Part shown: in pieces, positions 2,509 through 55,937 of the stretch
Layout: each line of letters opens with the position of its first letter
Numbering within the stretch: the stretch's first letter is position 1
Assembly (NCBI RefSeq): GCF_051903065.1
Contig: NZ_CP178438.1
Strand: one strand, 5' to 3'
DNA: 64,000 nucleotides
From: Escherichia coli
Lineage (GTDB): Bacteria; Pseudomonadota; Gammaproteobacteria; Enterobacterales; Enterobacteriaceae
The notes under the pieces: model-generated
Told to the model about the DNA's origin: nothing
The model's database searches: none
Seen by the model: the letters and a program-made list of their open reading frames with translations, nothing else
Position numbers and translations under genes: made by a program

Positions 2509-3711
2509 TTACCTGAACTGATAATGACCTTCGCCCAATCGGATAACCCTTCCCTCTTCTTCTGCGCGGTTCAGCCACACACTAATTTGTTCGATGGTTA
2601 AACCAGTACAAGACGCCAGCCTTTCAATACTTATCGATTCCTTTGCAAGGATCGCCAGTTCCGCCACAAAGAGTTGATAAAAATCGACAGGCGTATACGC
2701 GGGCATTACTGCGTAATTTGCGTCATCTTCATGCAGCGAAAACAGTTCTGGTTGAGCGTTACGGAGTGCTCTGTCATACATCAGCCCAGGAACGTCTGGC
2801 AGTCTGATCGTCACATTCTCAGCCTGTTCAGCACTCCATGACGCCCCATTTTCTACTAATCGTGAATTGGCTGATTGCATATCCTGATTTGGTTTAACCT
2901 GCACAGGCAGCCACTGATGTTTTAATGCCTCCATCGCCCCGGTTATCGTTCCACCGGTCATTCCCGCACGTACAACCATTGCGCTTTCAGCAAGGCAATA
3001 AATATATTTATTTCGCGCCATCGCATTGCCGACGGTGAAACGTACCTCTGGGTAAAACGGCGAAATCAACACCAGGTTGCCTGCTATAAGCCCTTCACGC
3101 CATTTCACTAACGTACTCGTTTTTAACAAGCTATCAGCTAATACGCCAACGGCAGTTCCCCCGGCCTCCAGTGCCGACGCCATTGCACATTCATCAATAC
3201 CTCGCGCACCACCAGAGATAACGCAAATCCCCTGTTGGGCCAGTTTCGCGGCCAGTTGTTGGGTATAGCGCAAATCGTCAGTCGGAGCATCTCGCGAGCC
3301 AACAATCGCCATACCTTCCGCTTGCAGTAATGCTTTATTCCCGCAGCCAAATAAAACGGGAGGTGCATCCGTTCGCAATCGGTTTTTCAAGCGAACGGGA
3401 TAATCAGCATCTCCGCGGGTTAAGATCCATAAACCGGCGCGTTGCCACTTATCTACCGCCAACGCCAGACTATGACCACGCGCCAGCAAGCCAAGAATAC
3501 GCTCCTGAGAAATACGCGGATCGCTCCAGCCTGTAAGTTTCTCTTGCGGTTGCGGCACCAGAAGCTCGGCGGGACTGATACGTTGGTGCTTCAGCCATAA
3601 TGCAAACTTCCCCCATTCACTATTACTAAGAGGTTTATACTCACTCGCCGCCGCGCGAGAAAAATCGCTGGTTAGCAGGAGAGTTGCTTGTGCATTGGCT
3701 GAAAGATTCAT
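2509..3711 (-). CDS. DprA/Smf-like (SLOG Rossmann-fold) DNA-processing protein paralog
   Basis: ORF 2509..3804; DprA signature ...AIVGSRDAPTDDL...VISGGARGIDECAMASALEAGGTAVGVLADSL...MARNKYIYCLAESAMVVRAG; start assigned to Met32 (3709-3711), which overlaps the upstream helicase stop in a TGATG arrangement; the alternative start at 3804 would overlap the helicase by 94 nt. Confidence 0.75.
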   Translation of the reverse strand: MNLSANAQATLLLTSDFSRAAASEYKPLSNSEWGKFALWLKHQRISPAELLVPQPQEKLTGWSDPRISQERILGLLARGHSLALAVDKWQRAGLWILTRGDADYPVRLKNRLRTDAPPVLFGCGNKALLQAEGMAIVGSRDAPTDDLRYTQQLAAKLAQQGICVISGGARGIDECAMASALEAGGTAVGVLADSLLKTSTLVKWREGLIAGNLVLISPFYPEVRFTVGNAMARNKYIYCLAESAMVVRAGMTGGTITGAMEALKHQWLPVQVKPNQDMQSANSRLVENGASWSAEQAENVTIRLPDVPGLMYDRALRNAQPELFSLHEDDANYAVMPAYTPVDFYQLFVAELAILAKESISIERLASCTGLTIEQISVWLNRAEEEGRVIRLGEGHYQFR

Positions 3712-5807
3712 CAATTTTTTACCGAGGTAGAAGCAAGGGCAAGAGGATAAACCGTCGGGCAACCTGCCTGGCGTAACAGTGCTGTCAGAACTGTCAGCGT
3801 CCATGCAGAATCCACGATATCGTCAACCAGCAACGCCGGACCAGGCATCAAAGGAGGGGTAATCACAAACGCCCCGTCGAGATTTTGACACTGGTGGAAA
3901 CGGTTTTGCTGCATTTTCTGCGGTGGATTGTCCACGACTTTTTCAATGGCATCAATAAAAGGTAAGCCAAGTTTCGCCGCCAGTCGCCGGGCAAAATCAG
4001 AAACCAGGTCGAGGTGCTTTAATGAAGGAACGCAGCATACCCAGGTTGGTTCAGGATGCGGATTCCAGCGTTGGCGAACCATTTCCGCACATGCCTCCAC
4101 CAGTTCATCACTGAATCGTCCCGTTTTTTTCTCCTGTGCTACCTGCTTTCCCCACCCGGAATCTCCCCAACGAGAAAGGATTCGCCCCGTAGATCCTTGT
4201 AAACTCGCAGGCAAGTTCCCTTTAAATCCGTATTGCGTAAAAGCCCCAGCTGCCACCTGTTTATTGAGATTTAATGGCAGGTCAGCGTGTTTAATAAATA
4301 AGTTTGCCGCATGGAGTAAGCCGCTATCAATGTCGGGCGACAACAACGGACGCTGAAGACAACTGCTACATTTACCACAACGTTCGGCACCTGGCTCATC
4401 GAGTGCGCGGCGCAGAAATTGCATTTTGCACTCCTTGGTCGTGATATAGCTTTCAACGTCTGCCAGCTCACTTTTTCTCTGATTCATCAAATGGTTAATT
4501 CGTTCATGGTCAGGAGAAAAACTGACAATTGTTCTGCGCCATAATTTCTCGGTATACACCACAGGCGATGGATTTTCAGCTACCAATAATTTCAGTGCTT
4601 TTTCTATTTGCCCATAACGGAGATTCGTCCGTTGTTCAATGCCTCGTAAGGTAAGACCGTCATTCACGCTAAGTACGTTGAGTATTTCATGAATTTGTGC
4701 CTCCGCAGGAAAGGCGCTTTCACGGAAGAATTTATGAATAGCACGGTCTTCACTGCCGCAAAGCAGTATGCCAACAGCAGAATCGATACCGCGACCGGCA
4801 CGCCCCACCTGTTGGTAGTAACCAACTATCGAACCTGGCATCTGGTAATGAATAACAAACCCCAAATCCGGTTTGTCAAAGCCCATTCCCAGCGCCGTTG
4901 TCGCAACCAGCACTTTAATTTTATTTGCCAGCAACGCCTGCTCCAGATATTCCCTGGCAGTATTAGAATCTTCCGCGCCTTCACAAGTCACGCCGCTGTA
5001 GTAAGCAAATGCACTGATACCATTTTTCCTTAACCACTCGGCGACAAGTTCGGCATCGCGAGTAGTCAGGGTATAAACAATTCCCGATTTGGAAAACTGA
5101 GGGATAACCGTTGCTAACCATGCCAGACGGGATGACTGTTCACCTAAGACTAAGGCATCAAGCGCCAAACTTTCGCGAGCCAGCGTTCCACGCTGAATCA
5201 CAATGTCACCCAATTGCTGACGGATATCCTCAACGACACGGTTATTCGCTGTCGCGGTTGTACCCAGAACAGGGGTATTCGCAGGTAGTTGGCGCAAAAT
5301 ATCTAATATACGTCGGTAATCCGGGCGAAAATCGTGGCCCCAATCAGAGATGCAGTGCGCCTCGTCGACCACAAGCAAGCCAATACGATCGGCTATAGGA
5401 TATAAAACCGTTTCGATAAAGTCCTGGTTTGCCAAACGTTCCGGGGAAACCAGCAAGCAATCGACCTCACCTTGCAGCAACTTATCGCTAATGCGCTGCC
5501 ATTCTTCTCTGTTTGTAGAATTCAACGTTTCAGCCGTAATACCTAACCGTTCAGCGGCGGCAACCTGGTTACGCATCAGGGCAAGCAAAGGAGAGATGAT
5601 AATTGTCGGGCCAGCGCCGCGATCGCGGAAGATTTTACTGGCGATGAAGTACACAGCACTTTTCCCCCAGCCAGTGCGTTGGACAACCAGCAGTTTTCGC
5701 CGTTGGTTCACCACCGCGTCTATGGCTTCCCATTGCCCTTCCCTGAAAGTAGCGGTGGTATTTCCTAACATCCGCTGTAAAAGCAATTCAGCTGCGTGCT
5801 TTTCCAT
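3711..5807 (-). CDS. RecQ-family SF2 DNA helicase with C-terminal ComF/GntX-like phosphoribosyltransferase-fold domain
   Basis: 698 aa; Walker A QRTGWGKS, DEAH box VVDEAHCISDWGHDFRPDY, TATA motif, QQVGRAGRG arginine finger, Cys4 zinc site C460/C477/C480/C483 (17-3-3 spacing as in RecQ); C-terminal ...GAFVITPP...PALLVDDIVDSAWTL... resembles the PRTase-type nucleotide-binding loop of ComF-family proteins; strong SD (aggag) upstream of ATG at 5805-5807. Confidence 0.8.
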   Translation of the reverse strand: MEKHAAELLLQRMLGNTTATFREGQWEAIDAVVNQRRKLLVVQRTGWGKSAVYFIASKIFRDRGAGPTIIISPLLALMRNQVAAAERLGITAETLNSTNREEWQRISDKLLQGEVDCLLVSPERLANQDFIETVLYPIADRIGLLVVDEAHCISDWGHDFRPDYRRILDILRQLPANTPVLGTTATANNRVVEDIRQQLGDIVIQRGTLARESLALDALVLGEQSSRLAWLATVIPQFSKSGIVYTLTTRDAELVAEWLRKNGISAFAYYSGVTCEGAEDSNTAREYLEQALLANKIKVLVATTALGMGFDKPDLGFVIHYQMPGSIVGYYQQVGRAGRGIDSAVGILLCGSEDRAIHKFFRESAFPAEAQIHEILNVLSVNDGLTLRGIEQRTNLRYGQIEKALKLLVAENPSPVVYTEKLWRRTIVSFSPDHERINHLMNQRKSELADVESYITTKECKMQFLRRALDEPGAERCGKCSSCLQRPLLSPDIDSGLLHAANLFIKHADLPLNLNKQVAAGAFTQYGFKGNLPASLQGSTGRILSRWGDSGWGKQVAQEKKTGRFSDELVEACAEMVRQRWNPHPEPTWVCCVPSLKHLDLVSDFARRLAAKLGLPFIDAIEKVVDNPPQKMQQNRFHQCQNLDGAFVITPPLMPGPALLVDDIVDSAWTLTVLTALLRQAGCPTVYPLALASTSVKN

Positions 5808-11147: not shown

Positions 11148-11242
11148 AAAAAAAAAGCCAGCACCCGGCTGGCTAAGTAATACTGGAAGCAATGTGAGCA
11201 ATGTCGTGCTTTCAGGTTCTCCGCGAGGGTCTTCCTGATCGC
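11148..11242 (-). ncRNA. ryhB: RyhB small RNA (Fur-repressed iron-sparing sRNA)
   Basis: Minus-strand sequence GCGATCAGGAAGACCCTCGCGGAGAACCTGAAAGCACGACATTGCTCACATTGCTTCCAGTATTACTTAGCCAGCCGGGTGCTGGC followed by a T-run, recognised from memory as RyhB; lies between yhhX and yhhY as expected. Confidence 0.85.
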
Positions 11243-19507: not shown

Positions 19508-20254
19508 TCATTGCACCACACTCTGCTTCAGCCGCTCATTGGCGGTCTTAATCCATTCCCGGTGGTGTTTTCTATAATGAGGTCTTGAGCGTTTAGCCGT
19601 ATCAACCACGGCAACATACTGCTCGTTGGCTTCACGTAACCGACTCATTTTCGCCAACATTTCCGCATAGTAAATACGCGCCTGCGGGCCGGGGTAATAA
19701 GAAATCAATACTTCAAACTCGCTTTCCGCATCAGCGTATTTTTCTTGTGCGGCTAACGTTCTGGCAAATAACAAATGCCCGTCTGCCGACTGAAAATCAG
19801 GGTTATAACGCATCACATCTTCCAGCGTCTGCTGACAGGCGGCGAACTCCTGAATAGCAAACTGTGCCTGCGCCAGGCTTAGCATCATTGCCGCTTCATG
19901 GGCGAATATCCCGCTTAACGCCTGCTGATAATGGGGAACAGCTTCGTGATAACGCCCCAGACGCGCCAGTTCATTAGCCAACGCATAATGGTTTTGATTC
20001 GTCTCGGCAATCGCCAGTTCTTCGGTTAATTTGCGCAGGTGGCGCTCAGGGTTGAGTTTGTTCTGCAGGCGCATCAGCAAAGTATGCCCGTGACGGTCAG
20101 CGCCCGTTTCAGGCAGCATCACTATGACGAAATACGCCACGCAGCCAATCACCGGAAAACAGAAAATGATAAAAATCCAGTACCGCTCTTGTCCGGTACG
20201 GTAAGCGTGAATACAGCAAAGCAGTTCAAGCATGACAACAACGGCATAATGCAT
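19508..20254 (-). CDS. hypothetical membrane protein, PLDc_N-like N-terminal domain plus helical-repeat (TPR-like) C-terminal region
   Basis: 248 aa; N-terminus LELLCCIHAYRTGQERYWIFIIFCFPVIGCVAYFVIVMLPE fits the small two-helix PLDc_N pattern (R..W....I..P..G...Y); C-terminal part Ala/Leu-rich helical repeats; no database check run. Confidence 0.6.
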   Translation of the reverse strand: MHYAVVVMLELLCCIHAYRTGQERYWIFIIFCFPVIGCVAYFVIVMLPETGADRHGHTLLMRLQNKLNPERHLRKLTEELAIAETNQNHYALANELARLGRYHEAVPHYQQALSGIFAHEAAMMLSLAQAQFAIQEFAACQQTLEDVMRYNPDFQSADGHLLFARTLAAQEKYADAESEFEVLISYYPGPQARIYYAEMLAKMSRLREANEQYVAVVDTAKRSRPHYRKHHREWIKTANERLKQSVVQ

Positions 20255-25632: not shown

Positions 25633-26016
25633 ATGAAGCTGACCATCATTCGATTAGAAAAATTTAGCGACCAGGACCGGATTGACCTGCAAAAGATCTG
25701 GCCGGAGTATTCCCCTTCCTCGTTACAGGTTGACGATAACCACCGTATCTACGCCGCGCGTTTTAACGAGCGCCTGCTCGCTGCCGTACGGGTAACCTTA
25801 AGCGGCACAGAGGGAGCACTGGATTCCCTGCGCGTGCGGGAAGTCACTCGACGTCGCGGTGTGGGGCAATATCTGCTGGAAGAGGTTTTGCGTAACAATC
25901 CTGGCGTTTCATGCTGGTGGATGGCGGATGCAGGCGTGGAAGATCGCGGTGTGATGACGGCGTTTATGCAGGCGCTGGGGTTTACGGCACAACAGGGCGG
26001 CTGGGAGAAGCGTTAA
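25633..26016 (+). CDS. panM: PanD maturation/regulatory factor (GNAT-like)
   Basis: 127 aa MKLTIIRLEKFSDQDRIDLQKIWPEY...; between livK and livJ as in E. coli. Confidence 0.85.
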   Translation: MKLTIIRLEKFSDQDRIDLQKIWPEYSPSSLQVDDNHRIYAARFNERLLAAVRVTLSGTEGALDSLRVREVTRRRGVGQYLLEEVLRNNPGVSCWWMADAGVEDRGVMTAFMQALGFTAQQGGWEKR

Positions 26017-26540
26017 TCGCTCTGTGTAAAAAGCAGTTCAATGGATTTGGTTGGGAAAAATAACGCATTTTTGTTTTCCCCGACTAAAGGGATAAAGCCC
26101 AGCGATTTATAAAACGTATGGGCTTTTTCATTCAGCGCCTCGACAAAAAGACCGTGAATACCTACCGCTAAAGAGGCTGACCAGACGACTTTCATGGCAT
26201 GAGCAACCAGTGTTGCTCCCCATCCCTGCCCCTGTATTGAATGATCAATTGCCAGACGCCCAAGAGTGACGCTGGGAATATTTTTGTAGGGAATTTTTTT
26301 CTGTTTCGATTTCGAGGGCAATGCGGCTCGTTCAAAACAACTGCCGCATAATGTGTAATATCCCAGCACCTGACGTTCTGGAGTGTTGCGACAAAGGATA
26401 TACGCTCGCAGAATTTTGTTGCGATGTTGACGAACGAGATGTGTCGTCAGAAAGAGATTTAACGCTTCCTCGCCGCAGTCGAATCGCTGTAGATCATAAT
26501 CTGCATCATCGGTCAGAATCTCTATCGTCAGATCATCCAT
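26013..26540 (-). CDS. GNAT-family acetyltransferase toxin of a type II TA pair (AtaT/KacT/TacT family)
   Basis: 175 aa; GNAT acetyl-CoA motif (QGQGWGATLVAHAM); immediately downstream of a DUF1778 antitoxin with a 7-nt gap. Confidence 0.8.
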   Translation of the reverse strand: MDDLTIEILTDDADYDLQRFDCGEEALNLFLTTHLVRQHRNKILRAYILCRNTPERQVLGYYTLCGSCFERAALPSKSKQKKIPYKNIPSVTLGRLAIDHSIQGQGWGATLVAHAMKVVWSASLAVGIHGLFVEALNEKAHTFYKSLGFIPLVGENKNALFFPTKSIELLFTQSD

Positions 26541-26546
26541 AAATTA

Positions 26547-26813
26547 TTACATTCCCTGAAGACGTTTTACCGCACGTTTTAGCTTTTCACCTGGTGACGG
26601 TGGATTACTCAGCGCATCCATCACCCGCGTCCAGGATTCCTCATTGAGGATCACCCGCCGATGCTGTTCAATCACTTCCGCAGCCCGCTGCGAAGCGCTG
26701 TTCAACATAAATTGGCTGACGGACTGATTAGATATCGCTGCCGCTTCCTCAATCATACTTTTGTCATCGTCAGTTAAACGCAGATCGATACGCTGCTTTT
26801 TAACAGCAGACAT
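26547..26813 (-). CDS. DUF1778 (RHH-like) antitoxin (AtaR/KacA/TacA family)
   Basis: 88 aa MSAVKKQRIDLRLTDDDKSMIEEAAAISNQSVSQFMLNSA...; strong SD AGGAGA upstream. Confidence 0.8.
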   Translation of the reverse strand: MSAVKKQRIDLRLTDDDKSMIEEAAAISNQSVSQFMLNSASQRAAEVIEQHRRVILNEESWTRVMDALSNPPSPGEKLKRAVKRLQGM

Positions 26814-26828
26814 GTGAACTCTCCTGCT

Positions 26829-26859
26829 CCGTATAATATGTACGGCACATCACCGTACA
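26829..26859 (-). promoter_or_regulatory. putative TA operator/promoter (overlapping palindromes)
   Basis: ccgtataatatgtacgg and tgtacggcacatcaccgtaca inverted repeats directly upstream of the antitoxin start; typical autoregulatory TA operator layout. Confidence 0.5.
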
Positions 26860-26910
26860 ATAAGCATATCCTGGATTGTTTAATCTTTCTACAACCATTT
26901 CGACAAACAT

Positions 26911-26942
26911 AAAAAAACCCGATGGACGTTAAGCGCATCGGG
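26911..26942 (-). terminator. rho-independent terminator of livJ
   Basis: Minus-strand CCCGATG-cgcttaacgtc-CATCGGG followed by TTTTTTT, 20 nt downstream of livJ stop. Confidence 0.8.
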
Positions 26943-26962
26943 CATTTTCATTTATCTATCCG

Positions 26963-28066
26963 TTACTTCGCATCGGTCGCCGTGCCGTTGGCGTGCCAGT
27001 CAAATACGCCGAACTCAAAGCCTTTCAGATCGCCTTTCTCATCCCACGTCAGCGGCCCCATCACGGTATCAACCGAGTTCGCTTTCAGGTATTTGGCGAT
27101 TTCAGCCGGATCGTCAGACTGATTCAGGCCCGCCTGCAAAGATTGCAGCGCGGCGTAGGTGGTCCAAACGAATGCGCCGCTTGGGTCCTGTTTTTTCGCT
27201 TTGATGGCGTCAACAATGGGTTTGTTCGCCGGAACCTGATCGTAGTTCTTCGGCTTGGTCACCAGCAGCCCTTCCGCTGATTCGCCCGCAATGTTAGACA
27301 GCGAAACGTTAGCCACACCTTCCGGCCCCATAAACTGAGTTTTCAGCCCTGCCGCGCGTGCCTGACGCAGGATTTGCCCCATTTCCGGGTGATAACCGCC
27401 GTAGTAAACGAAGTCGATATTCTCTTTTTTCAGACGCGCCACCAGCGTTGAGAAATCTTTTTCCCCGGCGGTGATACCATCAAAGAACACCACGTTAGCA
27501 TTGCCTTTCTTCAGGCCGTCCTGCACCGCTCGCGCCAGACCTTCGCCGTATTGCTGTTTGTCGTGAACGATAGCAATACGCTGCGGTTTCACTTTCTCAA
27601 GAATATATTTCGCCGCCGTCGGCCCCTGGTCGGAGTCCAGGCCGGTGGTGCGCAGGATCAGCTGATAGCCACGGGCGGTCAGCTCCGGCGCGGTTGCCGC
27701 TGGGGTGATCATTAAAATGCCTTCGTCTTCGTAGATGTCAGACGCAGGCTGCGTTGATGAAGAACAGAGGTGACCAATCACATATTTAATGCCGTCGTTA
27801 ACGACTTTGTTCGCCACCGCAACCGCCTGTTTCGGGTCACAGGCATCGTCATATTTTACGATTTGCAGTTTGTTGCCTTTAATGCCGCCTTTAGCGTTGA
27901 TATCCGCAACCGCCTGCTCTGCGCCGGTAAACTCCTGGTCACCGTACTGCGCAACCGGACCGGACATTGCGCCCACGACCGCGACTTTAATATCTTCTGC
28001 CAGAGCCATATTGCTGAATGTCAGCGCGATACATCCTGCCAGTAACGCTTTACCCTTTATGTTCAT
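26963..28066 (-). CDS. livJ: Leu/Ile/Val periplasmic binding protein
   Basis: ORF 26963..28123; 367-aa form from [23 protein letters not shown] (signal peptide). Confidence 0.92.
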
Positions 28067-41784: not shown

Positions 41785-42060
41785 GTGGCTTCTGTTTCTA
41801 TCAGCTGTCCCTCCTGTTCAGCTACTGACGGGGTGGTGCGTAACGGCAAAAGCACCGCCGGACATCAGCGCTATCTCTGCTCTCACTGCCGTAAAACATG
41901 GCAACTGCAGTTCACTTACACCGCTTCTCAACCCGGTACGCACCAGAAAATCATTGATATGGCCATGAATGGCGTTGGATGCCGGGCAACAGCCCGCATT
42001 ATGGGCGTTGGCCTCAACACGATTTTACGTCACTTAAAAAACTCAGGCCGCAGTCGGTAA
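41785..42060 (+). CDS. insA: IS1 InsA (transposition inhibitor / N-terminal part of transposase)
   Basis: 91 aa [43 protein letters not shown]... (GTG start). Confidence 0.93.
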
Positions 42061-42482
42061 CCTCGCGCATACAGCCGGGCAGTGACGTCATCGTCTGCGC
42101 GGAAATGGACGAACAGTGGGGCTATGTCGGGGCTAAATCGCGCCAGCGCTGGCTGTTTTACGCGTATGACAGGCTCCGGAAGACGGTTGTTGCGCACGTA
42201 TTCGGTGAACGCACTATGGCGACGCTGGGGCGTCTTATGAGCCTGCTGTCACCCTTTGACGTGGTGATATGGATGACGGATGGCTGGCCGCTGTATGAAT
42301 CCCGCCTGAAGGGAAAGCTGCACGTAATCAGCAAGCGATATACGCAGCGAATTGAGCGGCATAACCTGAATCTGAGGCAGCACCTGGCACGGCTGGGACG
42401 GAAGTCGCTGTCGTTCTCAAAATCGGTGGAGCTGCATGACAAAGTCATCGGGCATTATCTGAACATAAAACACTATCAATAA
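41979..42482 (+). CDS. insB: IS1 InsB frame (transposase InsAB' made by -1 frameshift at the A-run near 42036-42041)
   Basis: 167-aa -1 frame ORF overlapping the insA 3' end; slippery ttaaaaaac motif present. Confidence 0.9.
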
Positions 42483-42497
42483 GTTGGAGTCATTACC

Positions 42498-42506
42498 GAG
42501 CAGGCA
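42498..42506. repeat. IS1 target-site duplication, right copy (GAGCAGGCA)
   Basis: Identical 9-mer to 41721-41729. Confidence 0.8.
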
Positions 42507-42865: not shown

Positions 42866-43255
42866 ATGAGACATTACATGAAATGGTTTGCGGCTATTGC
42901 TGTTGTGGGTGCTTTAGCGGGTTGCGCGCGTACTGCGCCAATTGATCAGGTTCACTCAACCGTCAGCGCTGGTCATACCCAGGAACAAGTGAAAAAAGCG
43001 ATTCTGAAAGCTGGCGTTGAACGCAAATGGATTATGTCCGAAGCCGGACAAGGCATAATTAAAGCACGTCAACAGTCACGCGATCATTCAGCGGAAATAC
43101 GCATTAACTACACGGCATCCAGCTACGATATCAATTATGAAAATAGCCAGAACCTTCAAGCGTCAGGCGGACAAATTCATAAAAACTACAATCGCTGGGT
43201 CCGCAATCTCGACAAAGATATTCAACTGAATTTGTCAGCGGGCGCAGATTTATAA
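42866..43255 (+). CDS. small lipoprotein (first gene of the polyene-type cluster)
   Basis: 129 aa, signal peptide with lipobox MKWFAAIAVVGALAGC; alternative start ATG 42878. Confidence 0.75.
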   Translation: MRHYMKWFAAIAVVGALAGCARTAPIDQVHSTVSAGHTQEQVKKAILKAGVERKWIMSEAGQGIIKARQQSRDHSAEIRINYTASSYDINYENSQNLQASGGQIHKNYNRWVRNLDKDIQLNLSAGADL

Positions 43256-43314
43256 TTCCTCCTAAAGTCGGGCCGTTGCGGTCCGATAATAATTTAATTC
43301 CCTCTTAACAGGTT

Positions 43315-44382
43315 GTGCCCAACATGTACGAACAGGATTCTCTTAGCGCACTGGATGCGATTACCGAAGCTCAACGCATTGCCTTTGCCCCTATGCTTTT
43401 TCAAACAGCACTCTGCCTACGTAATGCGGGTGTACTTTCATATCTGGATCGGCAAGGCAAACATGGCGCAACGCTGGCTGATATCACCGAACATAGCCAT
43501 ATCAACGAATATGCTGCCAGCGTTCTGTTAGATATGGGCTTAAGCGGGCGAATTATTACCTGTAAAGAGGGAATTTATTACCTGGCGAAAATCGGTCATT
43601 ACCTCCTGCATGACACTATGACTCGCGTGAATATGGATTTCACCCAGGATGTCTGTTACCAGGGGCTCTTCTTCCTCGCCGATTCACTCAATGAAGGAAA
43701 ACCTTCCGGGTTAAAAGTATTTGGCGACTGGTCGACGATATATCCGGCACTTTCGCAATTACCAGACGCCGCTCGTGAAAGCTGGTTTGCGTTTGATCAT
43801 TACTATTCAGATGGCGCATTTAACGCCGCACTGCCTTATGTATTCGCCAACAACCCCACAACATTGTACGATGTAGGCGGCAATACGGGTAAGTGGGCTT
43901 TGCGTTGCTGCAAATACAATGAAAACATCGCCGTGACGTTATTAGATCTGCCACAACAAATCGTACTAGCGAAAGAAAATATCGCGAATGCAGGTTTTTC
44001 TGATCGCATAGATTTCCATGCGGTGGATATGCTAAGCGATGCCCCATTACCGGGCGAGGCTGATATCTGGTGGATGAGCCAATTTTTAGACTGTTTTTCA
44101 CCCGAACAAATAATTAGCATACTCAGCAAAATTGCCAGCGTAATGAAGCCTGGCGCAAAAGTTTGCATCATGGAGTTGTTCTGGGATGCGCAGCGGTTTG
44201 AAGCAGCATCGTTTAGCCTGAACGCGTCCTCACTTTATTTTACCTGCATGGCAAACGGTAACAGCCGTTTCTATAGTGCAGAGAAATTTTACGACTATCT
44301 GAATAAAGCAGGATTCCAGGTAGCAGAGCGCCACGATAATTTAGGCGTTGGGCATACACTTTTGATATGCCAAAAGAAATAA
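43315..44382 (+). CDS. class I SAM-dependent (O-)methyltransferase
   Basis: 355 aa; SAM-binding motif LYDVGGNTGKWAL; GTG start at 43315, alternative ATG at 43324. Confidence 0.8.
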   Translation: MPNMYEQDSLSALDAITEAQRIAFAPMLFQTALCLRNAGVLSYLDRQGKHGATLADITEHSHINEYAASVLLDMGLSGRIITCKEGIYYLAKIGHYLLHDTMTRVNMDFTQDVCYQGLFFLADSLNEGKPSGLKVFGDWSTIYPALSQLPDAARESWFAFDHYYSDGAFNAALPYVFANNPTTLYDVGGNTGKWALRCCKYNENIAVTLLDLPQQIVLAKENIANAGFSDRIDFHAVDMLSDAPLPGEADIWWMSQFLDCFSPEQIISILSKIASVMKPGAKVCIMELFWDAQRFEAASFSLNASSLYFTCMANGNSRFYSAEKFYDYLNKAGFQVAERHDNLGVGHTLLICQKK

Positions 44383-44422
44383 TCGTCACTTAATAATTTT
44401 GGTTTACCGCGGGCGCGCGTTG

Positions 44423-45145
44423 ATGAAATTTACATTAAATATTACCGACTGGCAGGCACTGGCGCCTGGACTTAGCGAAGCGCAGCAATGGCAAGCATGG
44501 TCGCGCCAGCCGTGGGCGATTGACCCTGCCGCGCCGTTGGCAAAATTAAGTGAACTGCCAATGATGACCGCCCGCCGCCTCAGTTCAGGCAGCAAACTGG
44601 CTGTTGAATGCGGTCTGGCAATGCTACGCCGCCATCAGCCAGACGCCGTTTTGTATACCAGTCGTCATGGCGAACTGGAGCGCAATTACCGCATTGTTCA
44701 TGCACTGGCAACCGAACAGGCGCTTTCTCCGACCGACTTCGCGCTCTCCGTACACAACTCTTCCGTGGGTAACCTGACCATTGCGGCCAAACAGCCGATC
44801 GTTTCGTCATCGCTTTCGGCTGGTCGCGACACTTTCCAGCAAGGTTTGTGTGAAGTGCTTAGCCTGTTACAAGCGGGATACCAGCGCGTGCTGATGGTCG
44901 ATTTTGACGGTTTCCTGCCCGAGTTTTATCACCCACAACTGCCATCAGAAATGCCGACCTGGCCGTACGCCGTCGCGCTGGTGATTGAAGCTGGCGATGA
45001 GTGGCAATGTGAAACGCAGTCAGCCATTGCGGGCAATGAAACAACACTGCCGCAAAGCATGTTGTTTTTACAGCACTATTTACAAAATGTAGACACATTT
45101 TCACTGCCTGGCGAGCGCGTGCAATGGCGCTGGAGCCACAGATGA
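44423..45145 (+). CDS. ketosynthase-like protein lacking the active-site Cys (chain-length-factor-like KS partner)
   Basis: ORF 44399..45145 (TTG in track); ATG at 44423 gives MKFTLNITDWQALAPG...; about 240 aa, thiolase-like N-terminal half without a C-x-S-S catalytic motif. Confidence 0.7.
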   Translation: MKFTLNITDWQALAPGLSEAQQWQAWSRQPWAIDPAAPLAKLSELPMMTARRLSSGSKLAVECGLAMLRRHQPDAVLYTSRHGELERNYRIVHALATEQALSPTDFALSVHNSSVGNLTIAAKQPIVSSSLSAGRDTFQQGLCEVLSLLQAGYQRVLMVDFDGFLPEFYHPQLPSEMPTWPYAVALVIEAGDEWQCETQSAIAGNETTLPQSMLFLQHYLQNVDTFSLPGERVQWRWSHR

Positions 45146-45963
45146 GTAAGCTGATGTCACGTCTGGAGTGGACCTGGCGACTGGTCATGACCGGGTTATG
45201 TTTTGCCCTGTTTGGTCTCGGCGGCCTGCTGCTTTCTGTCGTGTGGTTTAACATATTGTTAGTTTTGGTGTGGGATACTTCCCGCCGCCGTCGTTTGGCG
45301 CGTCGCAGCATTGCCGCCAGTTTTCGCCTGTTTTTAACTGTCGCGAAAGGGCTTGGCGTGCTGGATTATCGTATTGATGGCGCTGAAATTTTACGTCAGG
45401 AACGCGGTTGCCTCGTCGTAGCCAATCATCCCACGCTGATCGATTACGTGCTGCTGGCGTCAGTCATGCCAGAAACTGACTGCCTGGTGAAAAGCGCACT
45501 GTTAAAAAATCCTTTTCTTGGCGGCGTCGTGCGGGCGGCAGATTATTTAATCAACAGCGAAGCTGAAACCCTGTTACCCCGCTGCCAACAGCGACTGGCA
45601 CAGGGTGACACTATCCTGATTTTCCCCGAAGGCACACGAACGAAGCCCGGTGAAAAAATGACGCTGCAGCGCGGGGCGGCGAATATTGCCGTGCGCTGCG
45701 CCAGCGATTTACGCATCGTGACAATCGGCTGTAGCGAGCATCTGCTGGATAAACAAAGTAAATGGTATGACGTTCCACCTGACCGGCCGTTTTTTACGGT
45801 TGCAGTCCATGGTCGGGTTGAAATCAATAAATTTTACGATGCAACTTCACAAGAACCGGCGCTGGCAGCAAGGCAGTTAAACCGGCATCTTTTGCTTCAA
45901 TTACAACAAGGTTGTTTACCTCTCTCAGGAATAAATAATGCAAGCGCTTTATCTGGAAATTAA
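45142..45963 (+). CDS. PlsC-type (lysophospholipid) acyltransferase
   Basis: ORF 45124..45963; start at ATG 45142 forms an ATGA overlap with the upstream stop; motifs NHPTLIDYVLL (H-x4-D) and IFPEGTRT. Confidence 0.8.
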   Translation: MSKLMSRLEWTWRLVMTGLCFALFGLGGLLLSVVWFNILLVLVWDTSRRRRLARRSIAASFRLFLTVAKGLGVLDYRIDGAEILRQERGCLVVANHPTLIDYVLLASVMPETDCLVKSALLKNPFLGGVVRAADYLINSEAETLLPRCQQRLAQGDTILIFPEGTRTKPGEKMTLQRGAANIAVRCASDLRIVTIGCSEHLLDKQSKWYDVPPDRPFFTVAVHGRVEINKFYDATSQEPALAARQLNRHLLLQLQQGCLPLSGINNASALSGN

Positions 45964-46195
45964 AAACCTCATCATCAGCACCCTCAATCTGGACGAGTTG
46001 ACGCCTGATGATATCGATACCGACGCGCCGCTGTTTGGCGACGGTTTAGGGCTGGACTCTATCGATGCCCTGGAACTGGGACTGGCAGTAAAAAATGAGT
46101 ACGGCATCGTGCTCTCTGCGGAAAGCGAAGAGATGCGTCAGCACTTTTTCTCCGTCGCCACTCTGGCCTCTTTCATTGCTGCGCAACGTGCCTGA
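45938..46195 (+). CDS. acyl carrier protein 1
   Basis: 85 aa; phosphopantetheine-attachment motif GLGLDSIDALELG; SD agga 7 nt upstream. Confidence 0.88.
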   Translation: MQALYLEIKNLIISTLNLDELTPDDIDTDAPLFGDGLGLDSIDALELGLAVKNEYGIVLSAESEEMRQHFFSVATLASFIAAQRA

Positions 46196-46206
46196 GGAAA
46201 GCCATC

Positions 46207-46458
46207 ATGACAGAACAACAAACCGTCTATCAGGAAGTCTCAGCCCTGCTGGTTAAGCTGTTTGAAATCGATCCGCAGGACATCAAACCTGAAGCGCGCC
46301 TGTACGAAGATCTGGAACTGGACAGCATCGACGCCGTTGACATGATTGTGCACCTGCAAAAGAAAACCGGTAAGAAAATCAAGCCGGAAGAGTTTAAAGC
46401 AGTGCGTACAGTCCAGGATGTCGTCGAGGCTGTAGAACGCCTGCTACAAGAAGCCTGA
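46207..46458 (+). CDS. acyl carrier protein 2
   Basis: 83 aa; motif DLELDSIDAVDMI; SD gagga upstream. Confidence 0.88.
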   Translation: MTEQQTVYQEVSALLVKLFEIDPQDIKPEARLYEDLELDSIDAVDMIVHLQKKTGKKIKPEEFKAVRTVQDVVEAVERLLQEA

Positions 46459-46462
46459 TCTG

Positions 46463-47044
46463 ATGTCGGGCATTCGCTCGCTACCGATGATTAAGCTGCT
46501 GACTGGATTATTGCTGCTCGCCTGGCCGTTTGTGATTTGGTTTGGCTTAGCGCATAACGGCCTGCACTGGCTGTTACCGCTAATGGCGTTGCTGCTTTTG
46601 TTGCGTCTGCGCCAGACCCGTCGCCAGGCGGGGCCTTTACAAGCCGTCACGCAACTCGTCGCTGTCGTGGGCATCGCATTATGTGTCGCCAGCTTTATGT
46701 TGAAAACGCACCAGCTACTGCTGTTTTACCCGGTAGTGGTTAACGCGGTCATGCTGGCGGTTTTTGGCGGTTCGCTGTGGTCGGCAATGCCGATAGTTGA
46801 GCGGCTGGCGCGGTTGCAGGAGCCAGACCTCCCGGAAAAGGGCGTGCGCTATACCCGCCACGTCACGCAAATCTGGTGCGGCTTTTTCATCATTAACGGT
46901 GGAATTGCCCTCTTTACCGCGCTTTATGCCGATATGTCGTTATGGACCGCCTGGAACGGCATGATTGCTTATTTGTTGATGGGGACGTTAATGGCTGGTG
47001 AATGGCTGGTGCGCCGCCAGGTTATGAAAAGAGATCGCGCATGA
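46463..47044 (+). CDS. hypothetical integral membrane protein
   Basis: 193 aa, about 4-5 hydrophobic helices (LLTGLLLLAWPFVIWFGLAH...). Confidence 0.7.
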   Translation: MSGIRSLPMIKLLTGLLLLAWPFVIWFGLAHNGLHWLLPLMALLLLLRLRQTRRQAGPLQAVTQLVAVVGIALCVASFMLKTHQLLLFYPVVVNAVMLAVFGGSLWSAMPIVERLARLQEPDLPEKGVRYTRHVTQIWCGFFIINGGIALFTALYADMSLWTAWNGMIAYLLMGTLMAGEWLVRRQVMKRDRA

Positions 47045-48402
47045 AGCAGACCTTACCGCTTGCACGCTGGCTGACTGCGCCACGCCCTGATGACACACCC
47101 ATTGCGTGGCTGAACGAAAGTACCTGGACGCTGGGCGATTTGCGTCACGATGTCGCGCAACTTATCTGCCGCTTGCAGCAACAGCCGGGTGAACGCTGGG
47201 CGCTGTGCTTTGAGAACAGCTATCTGTTTATCGTTGCCCTGCTCGCCACGCTACACGCCGGAAAAACGCCGGTGCTTCCGGGGCATAACCGTGTTATCCA
47301 GCTTAACGAGCAACGTGAACTTTTTGATGGTGTGCTTAGCGACAGCGAACTTAACTGGCAAGGTTCATTGCTGTTGGTAGCAAGTTCCCCACAAGTCGCG
47401 ACACAATCCTTCACCTTTGCCGCTATAGCGCCAGAGGCTTATATCGAGCTGTTTACCTCCGGTTCCACGGGACAGCCGAAACGGGTGATTAAACCTGTTC
47501 ATTTGCTGGACCGTGAAGCAGAACTGCTGGCTGAACGATTAGGCGCACGTCTGGCGGATTGTCGTGTCATCGGTTCCGTATTGCCGCAGCATTTGTACGG
47601 CCTGACTTTTCGCGTTTTCCTGCCCATGGCGCTGGGATTACCCCTACATGCCGCCATGCTCTGGTATGTCGAACAGTTTGCCGCGTTGAGTCATCAGCAT
47701 CGCTATATCTTCATCAGCAGCCCGGCATTTTTGAAGCGTCTGGATACACAGCTTTCCCCACCGCCCGTTCAGGTGCTTCTCTCTGCTGGCGGTGAGCTAC
47801 CGTGGCAGGATGTACAACACACCGCGAGCTGGCTGCGCGTCTGGCCTGATGAAATCTACGGCAGCACGGAAACCGGCGTCATCGCCTGGCGCTACCGCGA
47901 ACAAGAGCAACGCCGCTGGCTACCCCTCCCAGGTATGCAGTTCCAGGCCGAAGGCGATGCCTTTCGCCTCTTTTCACCGCTGATAGCGGAAGATAACGGC
48001 CTGTTACTCGACGATATCTTACAGTTTAGCGAAGATGGTCAGTTCCATCTGATGGGGCGTCGTGGGCGCATCGTTAAGATTGAAGAAAAACGTATTTCAC
48101 TCCAGGAAGTAGAACAACGTCTACTGGCGCTGGACGGCATTCGCGAGGCGGCGGCAGTTCCCGTTACGCGCGGCGGGCGTCAGAGCATAGGCGTTTTGCT
48201 GGTGCTGGATGACGAAGCTCATCTGCAATGGCAGAACGGCGGCGGGCATAGCCAGGAAATGACCTGGCGGCGTTTACTGCGCCCGACGCTGGAGCCAGTT
48301 GCTATTCCGCGTTACTGGCGCGTTATTGATGAAATGCCAGTAAACAGTATGAACAAGCGTGTCTATGCGCAATTACAGGAGTTATTTCATGAAGCCCCAT
48401 GA
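47041..48402 (+). CDS. adenylate-forming enzyme (AMP-dependent synthetase/ligase; probable starter-acid:ACP ligase)
   Basis: ORF 47002..48402; start at ATG 47041 (ATGA overlap with upstream stop); AMP-binding motifs FTSGSTGQPKRV and YGSTETG. Confidence 0.82.
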   Translation: MKQTLPLARWLTAPRPDDTPIAWLNESTWTLGDLRHDVAQLICRLQQQPGERWALCFENSYLFIVALLATLHAGKTPVLPGHNRVIQLNEQRELFDGVLSDSELNWQGSLLLVASSPQVATQSFTFAAIAPEAYIELFTSGSTGQPKRVIKPVHLLDREAELLAERLGARLADCRVIGSVLPQHLYGLTFRVFLPMALGLPLHAAMLWYVEQFAALSHQHRYIFISSPAFLKRLDTQLSPPPVQVLLSAGGELPWQDVQHTASWLRVWPDEIYGSTETGVIAWRYREQEQRRWLPLPGMQFQAEGDAFRLFSPLIAEDNGLLLDDILQFSEDGQFHLMGRRGRIVKIEEKRISLQEVEQRLLALDGIREAAAVPVTRGGRQSIGVLLVLDDEAHLQWQNGGGHSQEMTWRRLLRPTLEPVAIPRYWRVIDEMPVNSMNKRVYAQLQELFHEAP

Positions 48403-48742
48403 AATCGAGCGCCATCAGGCACAAACGAATCACCTTGAAATTGTTCTGCATCTCAGGGCGGATCTGTTCTGGTTTCGCGGTCATTTTGCCGTGCAACCAT
48501 TACTCCCAGGAGTTGCGCAAATCGATTGGGCGATGAGCTACGCGCTCAATCTGCTCGCGCCTGGCTGGCGTTTTCACTCCATTCAGAACATAAAATTCCA
48601 GTCTCCGTTGCTGCCGGAAAACCGCGTCACGCTCGCGCTTAACTGGCAGGAAGAACGCCAGATTCTGAGCTTTAGCTATCAGCGTCACGACGGTGACGCC
48701 CGCCACACCGCCAGTAGCGGGAAGATACGCCTATGTCGGTAA
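48389..48742 (+). CDS. FabZ/FabA-like hotdog-fold 3-hydroxyacyl-ACP dehydratase
   Basis: ORF 48359..48742; start ATG 48389 with SD aggag 8 nt upstream; motif FRGHFAVQPLLPGVAQIDWAM resembles FabZ GHFP..P..PGVL..EA.AQ. Confidence 0.78.
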   Translation: MKPHEIERHQAQTNHLEIVLHLRADLFWFRGHFAVQPLLPGVAQIDWAMSYALNLLAPGWRFHSIQNIKFQSPLLPENRVTLALNWQEERQILSFSYQRHDGDARHTASSGKIRLCR

Positions 48743-50409
48743 ACTTTTCTCCCTGCGTGTTGATCCCCTGCTACAACCACGGCGCGATGATGCCGGGCGT
48801 GCTGGCGCGTCTTAAGCCATTTAATCTGCCCTGTATTGTGGTGGACGACGGCAGCGATGCCGCCACGCAACAGCAACTGGACAGTCTGCTTGCCGAACAG
48901 CCTGGCGTGACCTTAATCCGCCTGGCAGAAAACGCAGGCAAAGGCGCGGCAGTGATGCGTGGCTTACAGGCAGCGGCAGACGCAGGGTTCAGCCATGCGG
49001 TGCAGGTGGATGCTGACGGTCAACATGCGATTGAAGATATCCCCAAACTGCTGGCACTCGCTGAACAACACCCTGCGGCGCTGATCTCCGGCCAGCCAAT
49101 TTACGATGACTCCATCCCCCGCTCACGGCTTTACGGGCGCTGGGTCACCCACGTCTGGGTATGGATCGAAACGCTCTCCCTGCAACTGAAAGACAGCATG
49201 TGCGGCTTTCGCGTTTATCCGGTTGCGCCAACGCTGCAACTGGCAAAACACGCCACCATCGGCAAGCGGATGGATTTCGACACTGAAGTGATGGTGCGCC
49301 TCTACTGGCAGGGAAACACCAGCTATTTCGTGCCGACCCGCGTCACCTATCCACTGGACGGGCTTTCGCATTTTGATGCCCTGAAAGATAACGTCCGCAT
49401 CTCGCTCATGCACACGCGTCTGTTTTTCGGCATGTTGCCGCGTATTCCTTCACTACTGATGCGCCGCTCTTCCAGCCACTGGGCGCGGCAGAGTGAAGTG
49501 AAAGGATTATGGGGAATGCGCCTGATGCTGCTGGTCTGGCGTCTGCTGGGAAGAACGGCGTTTAGCGCGCTGCTTTACCCGGTGGTGGGCGTCTACTGGC
49601 TCACTGCTGCTCGTGCGCGCAAAGCGTCGCAAGACTGGCTCGCCCGTGTACGACAGCATCAACCACAGGCGGCAAAACTCAACAGCTATCAGCACTTTCT
49701 ACGTTTCGGTAATGCCATGCTCGACAAAATCGCCAGCTGGCGCGGCGAGCTACAACTGGGGCACGATGTGCTGTTTGCGCCAGGCGCAGAAGCGGCGCTT
49801 GACGTCAGCGATCCGCGCGGCAAATTGCTGCTGGCCTCGCATCTTGGCGATGTGGAAGTGTGCCGGGCGCTGGCAAAAATTCAGGGCTACAAAACCATTA
49901 ACGCGCTGGTGTTTAGCGAAAACGCCCAACGCTTTAAACAGATAATGCAGGAGATGGCTCCTCAGGCAGGTATTAACCTGATGCCGGTAACAGATATCGG
50001 CCCGGAAACCGCCATCCTGCTGAAAGAGAAGCTGGATAACGGCGAATGGGTGGCGATTGTCGGTGACCGCATCGCCGTCACCCCGCAACGCGGCGGCGAC
50101 TGGCGCGTCTGCTGGAGTCCGTTTATGGGCCAGCCTGCGCCCTTCCCACAGGGGCCGTTTATTCTCGCGTCTATTTTGCGCTGCCCGGTGAATCTGATTT
50201 TCGCCCTGCGCCAGCGCGGCAAGCTGCATATTCACTGCGAAACCTTTGCCGACCCGCTGCTGTTGCCGCGTGGCGAACGCCAACAGGCGCTGCAAAACGC
50301 TATCGACCACTACGCCGCGCGTCTGGAACATTACGCGCTCCAGTCGCCCCTCGACTGGTTTAATTTTTTCGATTTCTGGCAACTGCCGGAAATTCAGGAC
50401 AAGGAGTAA
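48733..50409 (+). CDS. two-domain protein: N-terminal GT2-family glycosyltransferase plus C-terminal domain of uncertain (possibly acyltransferase-like) function
   Basis: 558 aa; GT-A motifs VLIPCYNHG, VVDDGSDA, QVDADGQH in the first about 250 aa; C-terminal half not confidently assigned by eye. Confidence 0.75.
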   Translation: MSVNFSPCVLIPCYNHGAMMPGVLARLKPFNLPCIVVDDGSDAATQQQLDSLLAEQPGVTLIRLAENAGKGAAVMRGLQAAADAGFSHAVQVDADGQHAIEDIPKLLALAEQHPAALISGQPIYDDSIPRSRLYGRWVTHVWVWIETLSLQLKDSMCGFRVYPVAPTLQLAKHATIGKRMDFDTEVMVRLYWQGNTSYFVPTRVTYPLDGLSHFDALKDNVRISLMHTRLFFGMLPRIPSLLMRRSSSHWARQSEVKGLWGMRLMLLVWRLLGRTAFSALLYPVVGVYWLTAARARKASQDWLARVRQHQPQAAKLNSYQHFLRFGNAMLDKIASWRGELQLGHDVLFAPGAEAALDVSDPRGKLLLASHLGDVEVCRALAKIQGYKTINALVFSENAQRFKQIMQEMAPQAGINLMPVTDIGPETAILLKEKLDNGEWVAIVGDRIAVTPQRGGDWRVCWSPFMGQPAPFPQGPFILASILRCPVNLIFALRQRGKLHIHCETFADPLLLPRGERQQALQNAIDHYAARLEHYALQSPLDWFNFFDFWQLPEIQDKE

Positions 50410-50412
50410 AGG

Positions 50413-50835
50413 GTGCTTAACGATCCCCGATTTACCGCTGAAGTCGAGCTGACCATTCCCTTTCACGACGTCGATATGATGGGCGTGGCCTGGCACGGTA
50501 ACTATTTTCGCTACTTTGAAGTGGCCCGCGAGGCGCTGCTCAACCAGTTCAATTACGGCTATCGGCAGATGAAAGAGTCCGGTTATTTGTGGCCAGTGGT
50601 CGATGCGCGGGTGAAATATCGCCACGCTCTCACCTTTGAGCAACGCATCCGCGTGCGTGCGCATATCGAAGAGTTCGAAAACCGTCTGCGGATTGGCTAT
50701 CAGATTTTCGATGCCGAAACGGGCAAACGCGCCACCACCGGATACACCATTCAGGTCGCGGTCGACGAGCAAAGCCGCGAACTGTGCTTTGTCAGCCCCG
50801 ATATTCTGTTTGAACGCATGGGAGTCAAACCATGA
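50413..50835 (+). CDS. hotdog-fold acyl-(ACP/CoA) thioesterase (4HBT-like)
   Basis: 140 aa; GTG start 50413 with SD aaggag 6 nt upstream; MLNDPRFTAEVELTIPFHDVDMMGVAWHGNYFRYFE... typical 4HBT/YbgC-like N-terminus. Confidence 0.75.
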   Translation: MLNDPRFTAEVELTIPFHDVDMMGVAWHGNYFRYFEVAREALLNQFNYGYRQMKESGYLWPVVDARVKYRHALTFEQRIRVRAHIEEFENRLRIGYQIFDAETGKRATTGYTIQVAVDEQSRELCFVSPDILFERMGVKP

Positions 50836-51437
50836 AATTTTTACCGCTGCTGGCGCTGCTGATTAGCCCGTTTGTGAGCGCCCTGACCCTGGACGATCTT
50901 CAACAACGTTTTACCGAACAGCCGGTGATCCGCGCCCATTTCGATCAAACCCGGACGATTAAAGATCTGCCGCAGCCGCTGCGATCTCAGGGCCAGATGT
51001 TGATCGCCCGCGACCAGGGGTTATTGTGGGATCAAACCTCACCGTTCCCCATGCAACTATTACTGGACGATAAACGCATGGTGCAGGTGATCAACGGTCA
51101 GCCGCCGCAAATCATCACGGCAGAAAATAACCCGCAGATGTTCCAGTTTAACCACCTGCTGCGCGCGCTGTTCCAGGCCGATCGCAAAGTGCTGGAACAA
51201 AACTTCCGCGTCGAATTTGCCGACAAAGGCGAAGGCCGCTGGACGCTGCGCCTGATGCCGACCACCACGCCACTGGATAAAATTTTCAACACCATCGATC
51301 TCGCCGGGCAAACCTATCTGGAGAGCATTCAGCTTAATGATAAACAGGGCGATCGCACCGATATTGCTCTTACCCAACATCAACTGACACCAGCGCAACT
51401 GACCGATGACGAACGCCAACGTTTTGCCGCCCAGTAA
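50832..51437 (+). CDS. LolA-like outer-membrane lipoprotein carrier family protein
   Basis: 201 aa with signal peptide MKFLPLLALLISPFVSA; ATGA overlap with upstream gene. Confidence 0.72.
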   Translation: MKFLPLLALLISPFVSALTLDDLQQRFTEQPVIRAHFDQTRTIKDLPQPLRSQGQMLIARDQGLLWDQTSPFPMQLLLDDKRMVQVINGQPPQIITAENNPQMFQFNHLLRALFQADRKVLEQNFRVEFADKGEGRWTLRLMPTTTPLDKIFNTIDLAGQTYLESIQLNDKQGDRTDIALTQHQLTPAQLTDDERQRFAAQ

Positions 51438-53724: not shown

Positions 53725-54305
53725 TCAAATCCACATTCTGGCGAGCGTTCGCCCTGACCGCTACGCTTATCCTCACCGGCTGTAGCCACTCGCAACCAGA
53801 ACAGGAAGGCCGCCCGCAGGCGTGGCTGCAACCTGGCACGCGCATCACGCTGCCGGCACCAGGGATTTCACCCGCAGTCAATTCGCAGCAACTGTTGACC
53901 GGCAGCTTCAACGGCAAAACCCAGTCGCTGCTAGTAATGCTTAACGCCGACGACCAGAAAATCACCCTTGCCGGGCTGTCGTCGGTCGGCATTCGCCTGT
54001 TTCTGGTGACCTACGATGCAAAAGGGCTACGCGCCGAGCAATCCATCGTCGTCCCGCAGTTGCCGCCCGCAAGTCAGGTGCTGGCTGACGTAATGCTCAG
54101 CCACTGGCCGATTAGCGCCTGGCAACCGCAACTTCCCGCAGGATGGACACTTCGCGACAACGGTGACAAACGCGAGCTGCGTAACGCCAGCGGCAAACTG
54201 GTCACGGAAATCACCTATCTGAATCGCCAGGGAAAACGCGTGCCAATCAGCATTGAGCAGCATGTCTTTAAATACCACATCACCATTCAATACTTAGGTG
54301 ACTGA
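53721..54305 (+). CDS. lipoprotein of unknown function (DUF3261-like)
   Basis: 194 aa, lipobox LILTGC after signal peptide; ATGA overlap with MMPL gene. Confidence 0.72.
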   Translation: MIKSTFWRAFALTATLILTGCSHSQPEQEGRPQAWLQPGTRITLPAPGISPAVNSQQLLTGSFNGKTQSLLVMLNADDQKITLAGLSSVGIRLFLVTYDAKGLRAEQSIVVPQLPPASQVLADVMLSHWPISAWQPQLPAGWTLRDNGDKRELRNASGKLVTEITYLNRQGKRVPISIEQHVFKYHITIQYLGD

Positions 54306-54306
54306 T

Positions 54307-55476: not shown

Positions 55477-55937
55477 GCCACTATTTATCCCCCGGTGCTT
55501 ATCTGCCCCACGACGCGCCCATGTTACTGCTGGAAGACGTGGTGAGCGTCAGCGATGACAGCGCGGTGTGCCGCGTGACGGTTTCGCCCAGTGGCGTACT
55601 GGCACCGTTTCTCGACCCGGACGGCAATCTCCCCGGCTGGTTTACCCTTGAACTGATGGCGCAAACCGTCGGCGTCTGGTCTGGCTGGCATCGCCACCAG
55701 CAGGGCAAAAACAGTATTGAGTTAGGGATGATACTGGGCGCGCGTGAATTGCTTTGCACCACTGGCATTCTGCCCGCAGGCCAGACGCTGACCATTACCG
55801 TCAAACTGCTGATGCAAGACGATCGCTTCGGCAGTTTTGAGTGCAGCATCAACGACGGCGAGGCAACGGGCCGCATTAACACCTTCCAGCCGACCGCGGA
55901 AGAACTTACCACCCTGTTTCAACAAGGAGCGTCCTGA
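55473..55937 (+). CDS. FabA-like hotdog-fold dehydratase
   Basis: 154 aa; GTG start overlapping upstream stop (GTGA) with SD ggagg; hotdog-length protein with no other recognisable catalytic motifs. Confidence 0.7.
   Translation: MSHYLSPGAYLPHDAPMLLLEDVVSVSDDSAVCRVTVSPSGVLAPFLDPDGNLPGWFTLELMAQTVGVWSGWHRHQQGKNSIELGMILGARELLCTTGILPAGQTLTITVKLLMQDDRFGSFECSINDGEATGRINTFQPTAEELTTLFQQGAS

Follow-up and report, generated by a model that had tools for sequence, protein, structure and literature searches.

Structures of the GNAT toxin AtaT and its antitoxin AtaR have been solved for the toxin alone, with antitoxin, with operator DNA, and with tRNA, and the target range of AtaT is reportedly disputed between studies published in 2017 and 2020. 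In Escherichia coli O157:H7 strain Sakai, the pair corresponds to ECs4308-ECs4307 (PMC7470980). The first reported target of AtaT was the initiator Met-tRNAfMet, so that initiation is blocked; Gly-, Trp-, Tyr-, and Phe-tRNAs were added later, with global inhibition of translation, and tRNA selection was attributed to the nature of the side chain and to G-C pairs in the lowest part of the acceptor stem (PMC7595197). For the EHEC allele, both structures and LC/MS in vivo support the acetylation of aminoacyl-tRNAs (PMC7595197). AtaR blocks dimerization of AtaT, the ribbon-helix-helix (RHH) domains of the resulting hexamer bind a palindromic operator, and an excess of toxin de-represses the operon (PMC6698736, PMC8138530). 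The palindrome bound by the AtaR4-AtaT2 hexamer lies in its own operator (PMC6698736).

The locus described here lies in a 64-kb stretch of E. coli DNA (hereafter, the window) and is almost certainly the chromosomal ataRT operon of this species, a type II toxin-antitoxin system of the GNAT/RHH class. In a search of all PDB chains, the toxin was identical to AtaT of PDB 6GTS (6gts_A) at 172 of 175 residues (E = 1e-115), with further AtaT matches in 6AJM, 6AJN, 6GTP-R, and 7CHD; the runner-up was KacT (E = 1e-73), followed by TacT-like toxins. The antitoxin was identical to AtaR (6ajm_C; also 6GTO/6GTS) at 87 of 88 residues, the sole difference being a Val at position 82 where the solved protein has Ala. 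Three Pfam GNAT families matched ataT over residues 92-155 (PF13508, 5.4e-07; PF00583, 5.3e-06; PF13673, 1.3e-04), and ataR matched PF08681, which Pfam now calls TacA1 and formerly called DUF1778, at E = 1.4e-25 over residues 8-86 of 88. In RefSeq, PGAP annotates the 100%-identical DNA of strain ECNB21-M121 with ataT and ataR, as it does ~1,600 other genomes, and the exact toxin allele of the window is present, under the name AtaT, on 208 public contigs. When NCBIfam HMMs were compared with both proteins, only sub-threshold GNAT and RHH matches were obtained, so PGAP evidently arrives at these names by another route. The initial annotation of this DNA had described a type II pair of an AtaT/TacT/KacT-type GNAT toxin and a DUF1778 antitoxin, leaving the subfamily to a homology search; the pair proves to be AtaR-AtaT itself, at 98-99% protein identity, as judged both by the PDB identities and by the RefSeq annotation. 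The pair is already known: its structures, chemistry, and autoregulation are published, and the NCBI pipeline names the genes.

For the mechanism, we rely on published work on the EHEC proteins, which are 98-99% identical to those encoded here, and carry it over to this locus by inference. The homodimer, which is the active form of AtaT, would acetylate aminoacyl-tRNAs on their alpha-amino group, with acetyl-CoA as the donor; the acetylated aminoacyl-tRNAs would be barred from translation, and protein synthesis would stop. The C-terminal part of AtaR would wrap around AtaT and block its dimerization, giving an AtaT-AtaR4-AtaT heterohexamer whose N-terminal RHH domains would repress ataRT through binding to its promoter palindrome. 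With toxin in excess, affinity for the operator would fall and transcription of ataRT would be de-repressed.

The ORF listing places ataR, which encodes the 88-aa RHH antitoxin and autorepressor, at 26547-26813 on the minus strand and ataT, which encodes the 175-aa GNAT toxin and aminoacyl-tRNA N-alpha-acetyltransferase, at 26013-26540 on the same strand. The layout is that of a type II toxin-antitoxin system, with two small, adjacent, co-oriented genes, the antitoxin first, a short spacer, and a palindrome upstream. Both ORF lengths, their coordinates, and the antitoxin-first order had been given exactly in the initial annotation, whereas the intergenic spacer, put there at 7 nt, is 6 nt when read from the sequence (TAATTT, 26541-26546, minus strand), counted from the TAA stop codon of ataR to the ATG of ataT. 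The two genes form one operon, and their translation is likely coupled. The operon lies where it had been placed, between panM (25633-26016, plus strand) and livJ (26963-28066, minus strand), both of which were located from the ORF listing and the ECNB21-M121 annotation. No paralogue of either protein (AtaRT2, for example) was found elsewhere in the 64-kb window; the only match was a weak one to panM.

Seven nucleotides upstream of the ataR start codon is a Shine-Dalgarno sequence, AGGAG (26821-26825, minus strand), which bears out the strong ribosome-binding site noted initially and is invariant in seven Escherichia loci. The overlapping palindromes that had been reported in the promoter at 26829-26859 are likewise present. 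The major one, TGTACGG-N7-CCGTACA (26839-26859), is an inverted repeat whose 7-nt arms are 100% complementary, and it is overlapped by a weaker palindrome, CCGTA-N7-TACGG (26829-26845), that may supply a third half-site. The core pattern GTACGG-N7-CCGTAC occurs once in the 64-kb window, against 0.06 occurrences expected by chance. Neither arm (GTACGG or CCGTAC) varies among the seven Escherichia loci, those of E. coli, E. albertii, and E. whittamii included, whereas the 7-nt center does, as would be expected of an operator that binds protein. The TACGG of the possible third half-site is kept in E. coli and reads TATGG in E. albertii and TAAGT in E. whittamii. On the basis of the sequence, we regard the palindrome at 26839-26859 as the probable AtaR/AtaRT operator. 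A putative sigma-70 promoter, picked out by eye, overlaps it (26833-26860, minus strand), with a -35 hexamer TTGTAC at 26860-26855, a 16-nt spacer, and a -10 hexamer TATTAT at 26838-26833. A consensus scan for promoters and terminators over 25900-27100 called nothing, because its rules exclude both a -35 hexamer with three of six matches and an 11-nt terminator loop.

Inverted-repeat and RNA-folding analysis identified the Rho-independent terminator of livJ, a hairpin followed by U7, at 26909-26951 on the minus strand. Its predicted fold (-24.5 kcal/mol, z = -5.2) was not equaled by any of 200 shuffled sequences, and it is conserved in all of the Escherichia loci compared. Lying upstream of the ataRT promoter, this terminator would be expected to insulate ataRT from livJ read-through. 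At the other end of the operon, ataT and the convergent panM share the tetranucleotide TTAA (26013-26016) between their overlapping stop codons, and TTAATCG is also kept in K-12. RNA folding of the region 3' of ataT, inside antisense panM, revealed no terminator structure beyond chance (z = -0.41). Two GNAT genes thus meet by their 3' ends, and no terminator is detectable between the two; Escherichia species have conserved this arrangement. PanM, alternatively named PanZ, adopts the GNAT fold, senses acetyl-CoA, and regulates the biosynthesis of coenzyme A. Its match to AtaT by tblastn was weak (31.7% identity over 60 aa, E = 0.2; 25918-26097).

We then compared the distribution of the operon across genomes. 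By megablast, an 888-bp segment carrying ataRT was found in 1,624 of 5,426 complete E. coli genomes (~30%), in every one of the 1,624 as a single chromosomal copy beside panM, annotated ataT/ataR, and never on a plasmid. O157:H7 genomes carry ataT/ataR beside panM and livJ, and the operon is absent from genomes of the K-12 and B lineages, so the initial statement that K-12 lacks the pair at the panM-livJ position held good. Alignment with the K-12 and B-lineage loci showed that the variable segment is the whole panM-livJ spacer (26020-26961, 942 bp), homology ending 3 nt past the panM stop codon and resuming at the livJ stop codon. The counterpart in K-12 and B is ~187-198 bp of unrelated sequence with REP elements, motifs that are found only in the K-12 and B spacers and not in the ataRT spacer. 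No ataRT remnants, residual similarity between the two kinds of spacer, or junction repeats were found in these comparisons. With a GC content of 0.452, the ataRT spacer is well below the window overall (0.536), which points to foreign acquisition at some time in the past.

The operon is also present at the same site and in the same orientation in E. albertii, E. whittamii, and one divergent Escherichia lineage, the three loci returned by a scan of species-representative genomes that used exact peptide patterns and says nothing on absence in other species. All three are colinear with the window: rpoH-livJ and panM-livK-livH flank the operon on opposite sides. The ataRT genes of E. albertii are 96-98% identical to those of the window and its flanks 92-94%; with E. 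whittamii included, the corresponding figures are 96-98% and 92-95%. Within E. coli, the divergence of the ataRT allele classes (99%, 98.1%, and 96.2%) parallels that of the flanking sequence. A variant of the panM-livJ locus was seen in E. coli UID2309220033 (L014, 1501-2264), where ataT is reduced to its C-terminal 65 aa and annotated as a pseudogene. Beside this remnant, the variant has an intact, diverged 94-aa TacA-family antitoxin that is 65% identical to AtaR at the amino acid level, and it carries an extra ~120-bp spacer with a REP-like G/C-rich palindrome before the livJ terminator. The variant points to decay or exchange of this locus in some lineages.

The published mutagenesis of AtaT provides a measure of whether the toxin encoded here is intact. 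Toxicity is abolished or reduced by G108D, which affects acetyl-CoA binding; by Y144F, which affects catalysis; by mutations at H34/R37/R40, R71, S76, S78, K77/K79/K81/K82, Y85, R95, and F30, which affect contacts to the tRNA acceptor stem; and by mutations at L27 and L136, which line the aminoacyl pocket (Yashiro et al. 2020, PMC7595197). When the sequence was checked against this list, the acetyl-CoA loop Q103-G-Q-G-W-G108 and Y144 were found to be kept, as were A26, L27, F30, H34, R37, R40, R71, S76-K82, Y85, R95, and L136. Loss of the acetyl-CoA-binding residues had been named initially as grounds for abandoning the assignment; these residues, G108 and the Q103-G108 loop, are present, as is the catalytic Y144. 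On the antitoxin side, ataR keeps R8, D10, and R12, the counterparts of KacA DNA-contact residues. Three substitutions, R100H, L102I, and E157K, set the toxin apart from all other Escherichia AtaT sequences examined (EHEC, other E. coli, E. albertii, and E. whittamii), and A82V does the same for the antitoxin among the Escherichia AtaR sequences examined. Position 100, three residues ahead of the acetyl-CoA loop, is Arg or Lys in all ten of the other aligned AtaT/KacT-like sequences and His here. Plasmid KacT-like homologues normally have Ile at position 102, and the alignment shows variation at position 157. From sequence considerations, R100H would be the only reason for slight reserve about full AtaT activity at this locus.

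The initial annotation had presented the pair as inserted in the panM-livJ interval; a mobile island that had entered this strain recently would account for its absence from K-12, B, and ~70% of E. coli genomes, for the GC content of 45% against 54% for the window, and for the prevalence of KacT-like homologues, at 60-68% identity, on plasmids and phage-plasmids. We consider a recent insertion quite unlikely, however. The junctions, whose neighbors are core genes, show no target-site duplication, integrase, transposase, or insertion sequence, and no junction repeat; the spacer has been replaced whole rather than interrupted; and no plasmid or phage copy of ataRT above 68% identity was found. 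The shared site and orientation across Escherichia species, including E. albertii and E. whittamii, also argue against it, as do a divergence of ataRT that is of the same order as that of the flanking core genes and E. coli allele classes that track their flanks. The data are best explained by acquisition long ago, since when presence and absence of the segment have coexisted as a polymorphism; for the K-12 state, loss or replacement is at least as likely as an ancestral empty site.

The operon could be AtaRT by descent and yet encode, in the H100/I102/K157 toxin, an attenuated or inactive protein, the pair being a decaying remnant kept only by linkage. The His at position 100, unique among 11 aligned AtaT/KacT-like sequences and placed just before the Q103-G108 loop, would fit such decay, and decayed loci do exist, as the 65-aa C-terminal remainder of ataT in UID2309220033 illustrates. 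We nevertheless think decay improbable, because the ataT ORF is full length with every residue for which there is mutagenesis evidence intact, Ile102 is normal in plasmid KacT-like homologues, position 157 is variable, the cognate antitoxin and the probable operator are intact beside this toxin, and the exact allele persists in a lineage, being found on 208 public contigs. Very improbable, in our estimation, is a combined reading in which H100/I102/K157 is a lineage-specific allele with altered activity or tRNA range and the ataT-panM arrangement is functional, de-repressed ataRT transcription running antisense into panM; if it were true, read-through into panM would couple activation of an acetyl-CoA-dependent toxin to the control of CoA supply. 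As for biological role, the "addiction" and "persistence" functions proposed for the chromosomal ataRT are assumptions, and a chromosomal copy next to core genes has no replicon to stabilize. Many chromosomal toxin-antitoxin modules act in phage defense, and the main role of AtaT might be abortive-infection phage defense, or else protein lysine acetylation in virulence (EspB K206), rather than growth control through tRNA. AtaT has been reported to acetylate EspB and to enhance EHEC virulence (He et al. 2021, PMC7957018); any espB gene or LEE island of this strain would lie outside the window. Either of these roles seems unlikely to us as the main one, since tRNA acetylation has the support of structures and in vivo LC/MS (PMC7595197), neither AtaT nor AtaR matched any PADLOC defense model, and many strains that are not EHEC, of meat, mouse, dog, and chicken origin, carry ataRT.

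Several other features of the window were recorded. The window is 99.99% identical to strain ECNB21-M121 save for one IS-sized insertion, a 768-bp segment at 41730-42497 that is flanked by a 9-bp duplication (41721-41729 = 42498-42506). Its size, the duplication, and its terminal sequence GGTGATGCTGCCAACTTACTGATTTAGTGTATGATGGTG fit IS1; on one side of it is yhhT and on the other the first gene, for a lipoprotein, of a downstream polyketide-like cluster. That cluster, of ~15 kb at ~42878-57894 on the minus strand (coordinates converted from the ECNB21-M121 annotation), contains genes for ketoacyl-ACP synthases, ApeI/ApeP dehydratases, acyl carrier proteins, and an MMPL transporter, along with a LolA-like protein, a glycosyltransferase, and a methyltransferase; located between yhhT and acpT, it appears to be a biosynthetic cluster of the aryl-polyene (APE) type. 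Between gntU and yhgN, at 2509-5807 on the minus strand, are a RecQ-family helicase of 698 aa (3711-5807) and a DprA-like protein of 431 aa (2509-3804), whose ORFs overlap by ~94 nt. This pair gave end-to-end PADLOC matches to PsyrT (1063 bits) and PsyrA (671 bits) and, as predicted from these matches, is the known PsyrTA (RqlHI) toxin-antitoxin and anti-phage defense pair, so that the window holds a second accessory toxin-antitoxin/defense module. Against Rfam, a single match in the window passed the gathering threshold, the small RNA RyhB (RF00057, 83 bits) at 11149-11213 on the minus strand. A 248-aa tetratricopeptide-repeat protein with no PADLOC match is encoded at 19508-20254 on the minus strand, between livF and ugpB.

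What this locus adds to the published account of AtaRT is modest and lies at the population level, namely the frequency of ~30%, the fixed panM-livJ site, and the minority toxin allele (R100H, L102I, and E157K) that the window carries. Since the site is common to E. albertii and E. whittamii, the lack of ataRT in K-12 more plausibly represents a single haplotype of a polymorphism of long standing than an ancestral empty site. In comparison with described systems, AtaR-AtaT of E. coli O157:H7 (ECs4308-ECs4307; PDB 6AJM, 6AJN, 6GTO-6GTS, and 7CHD) is the same pair, sharing the panM-livJ site and orientation, protein lengths of 88 and 175 aa, a nucleotide identity of 99.0%, and the arms of the probable operator. 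It differs by the three toxin substitutions, by A82V in the antitoxin, and by the center of the palindrome, where O157:H7 has TGACATA and the window TGATGTG. Also related are KacA-KacT of Klebsiella pneumoniae (PDB 5XUN and 5ZGN) and the KacT-like pairs of enterobacterial plasmids and phage-plasmids, which have in common with AtaRT the GNAT/RHH architecture, a heterohexamer on a palindromic operator, and conditional cooperativity (E values: toxin, 1e-73; antitoxin, 7e-38). They differ in that identity is only ~60-68%, they reside on plasmids or at other loci, and their promoter sequences are unrelated. TacAT of Salmonella, ItaRT of E. coli HS, and AtaRT2 of E. coli O157:H7 belong to the same toxin class as AtaRT, with N-alpha-acetylation of aminoacyl-tRNAs and a DUF1778/TacA antitoxin, but they are distant from it, with PDB matches at E = 1e-20 to 1e-11, other tRNA targets, and other loci; AtaT2 shares only ~29% identity with AtaT (PMC7470980).
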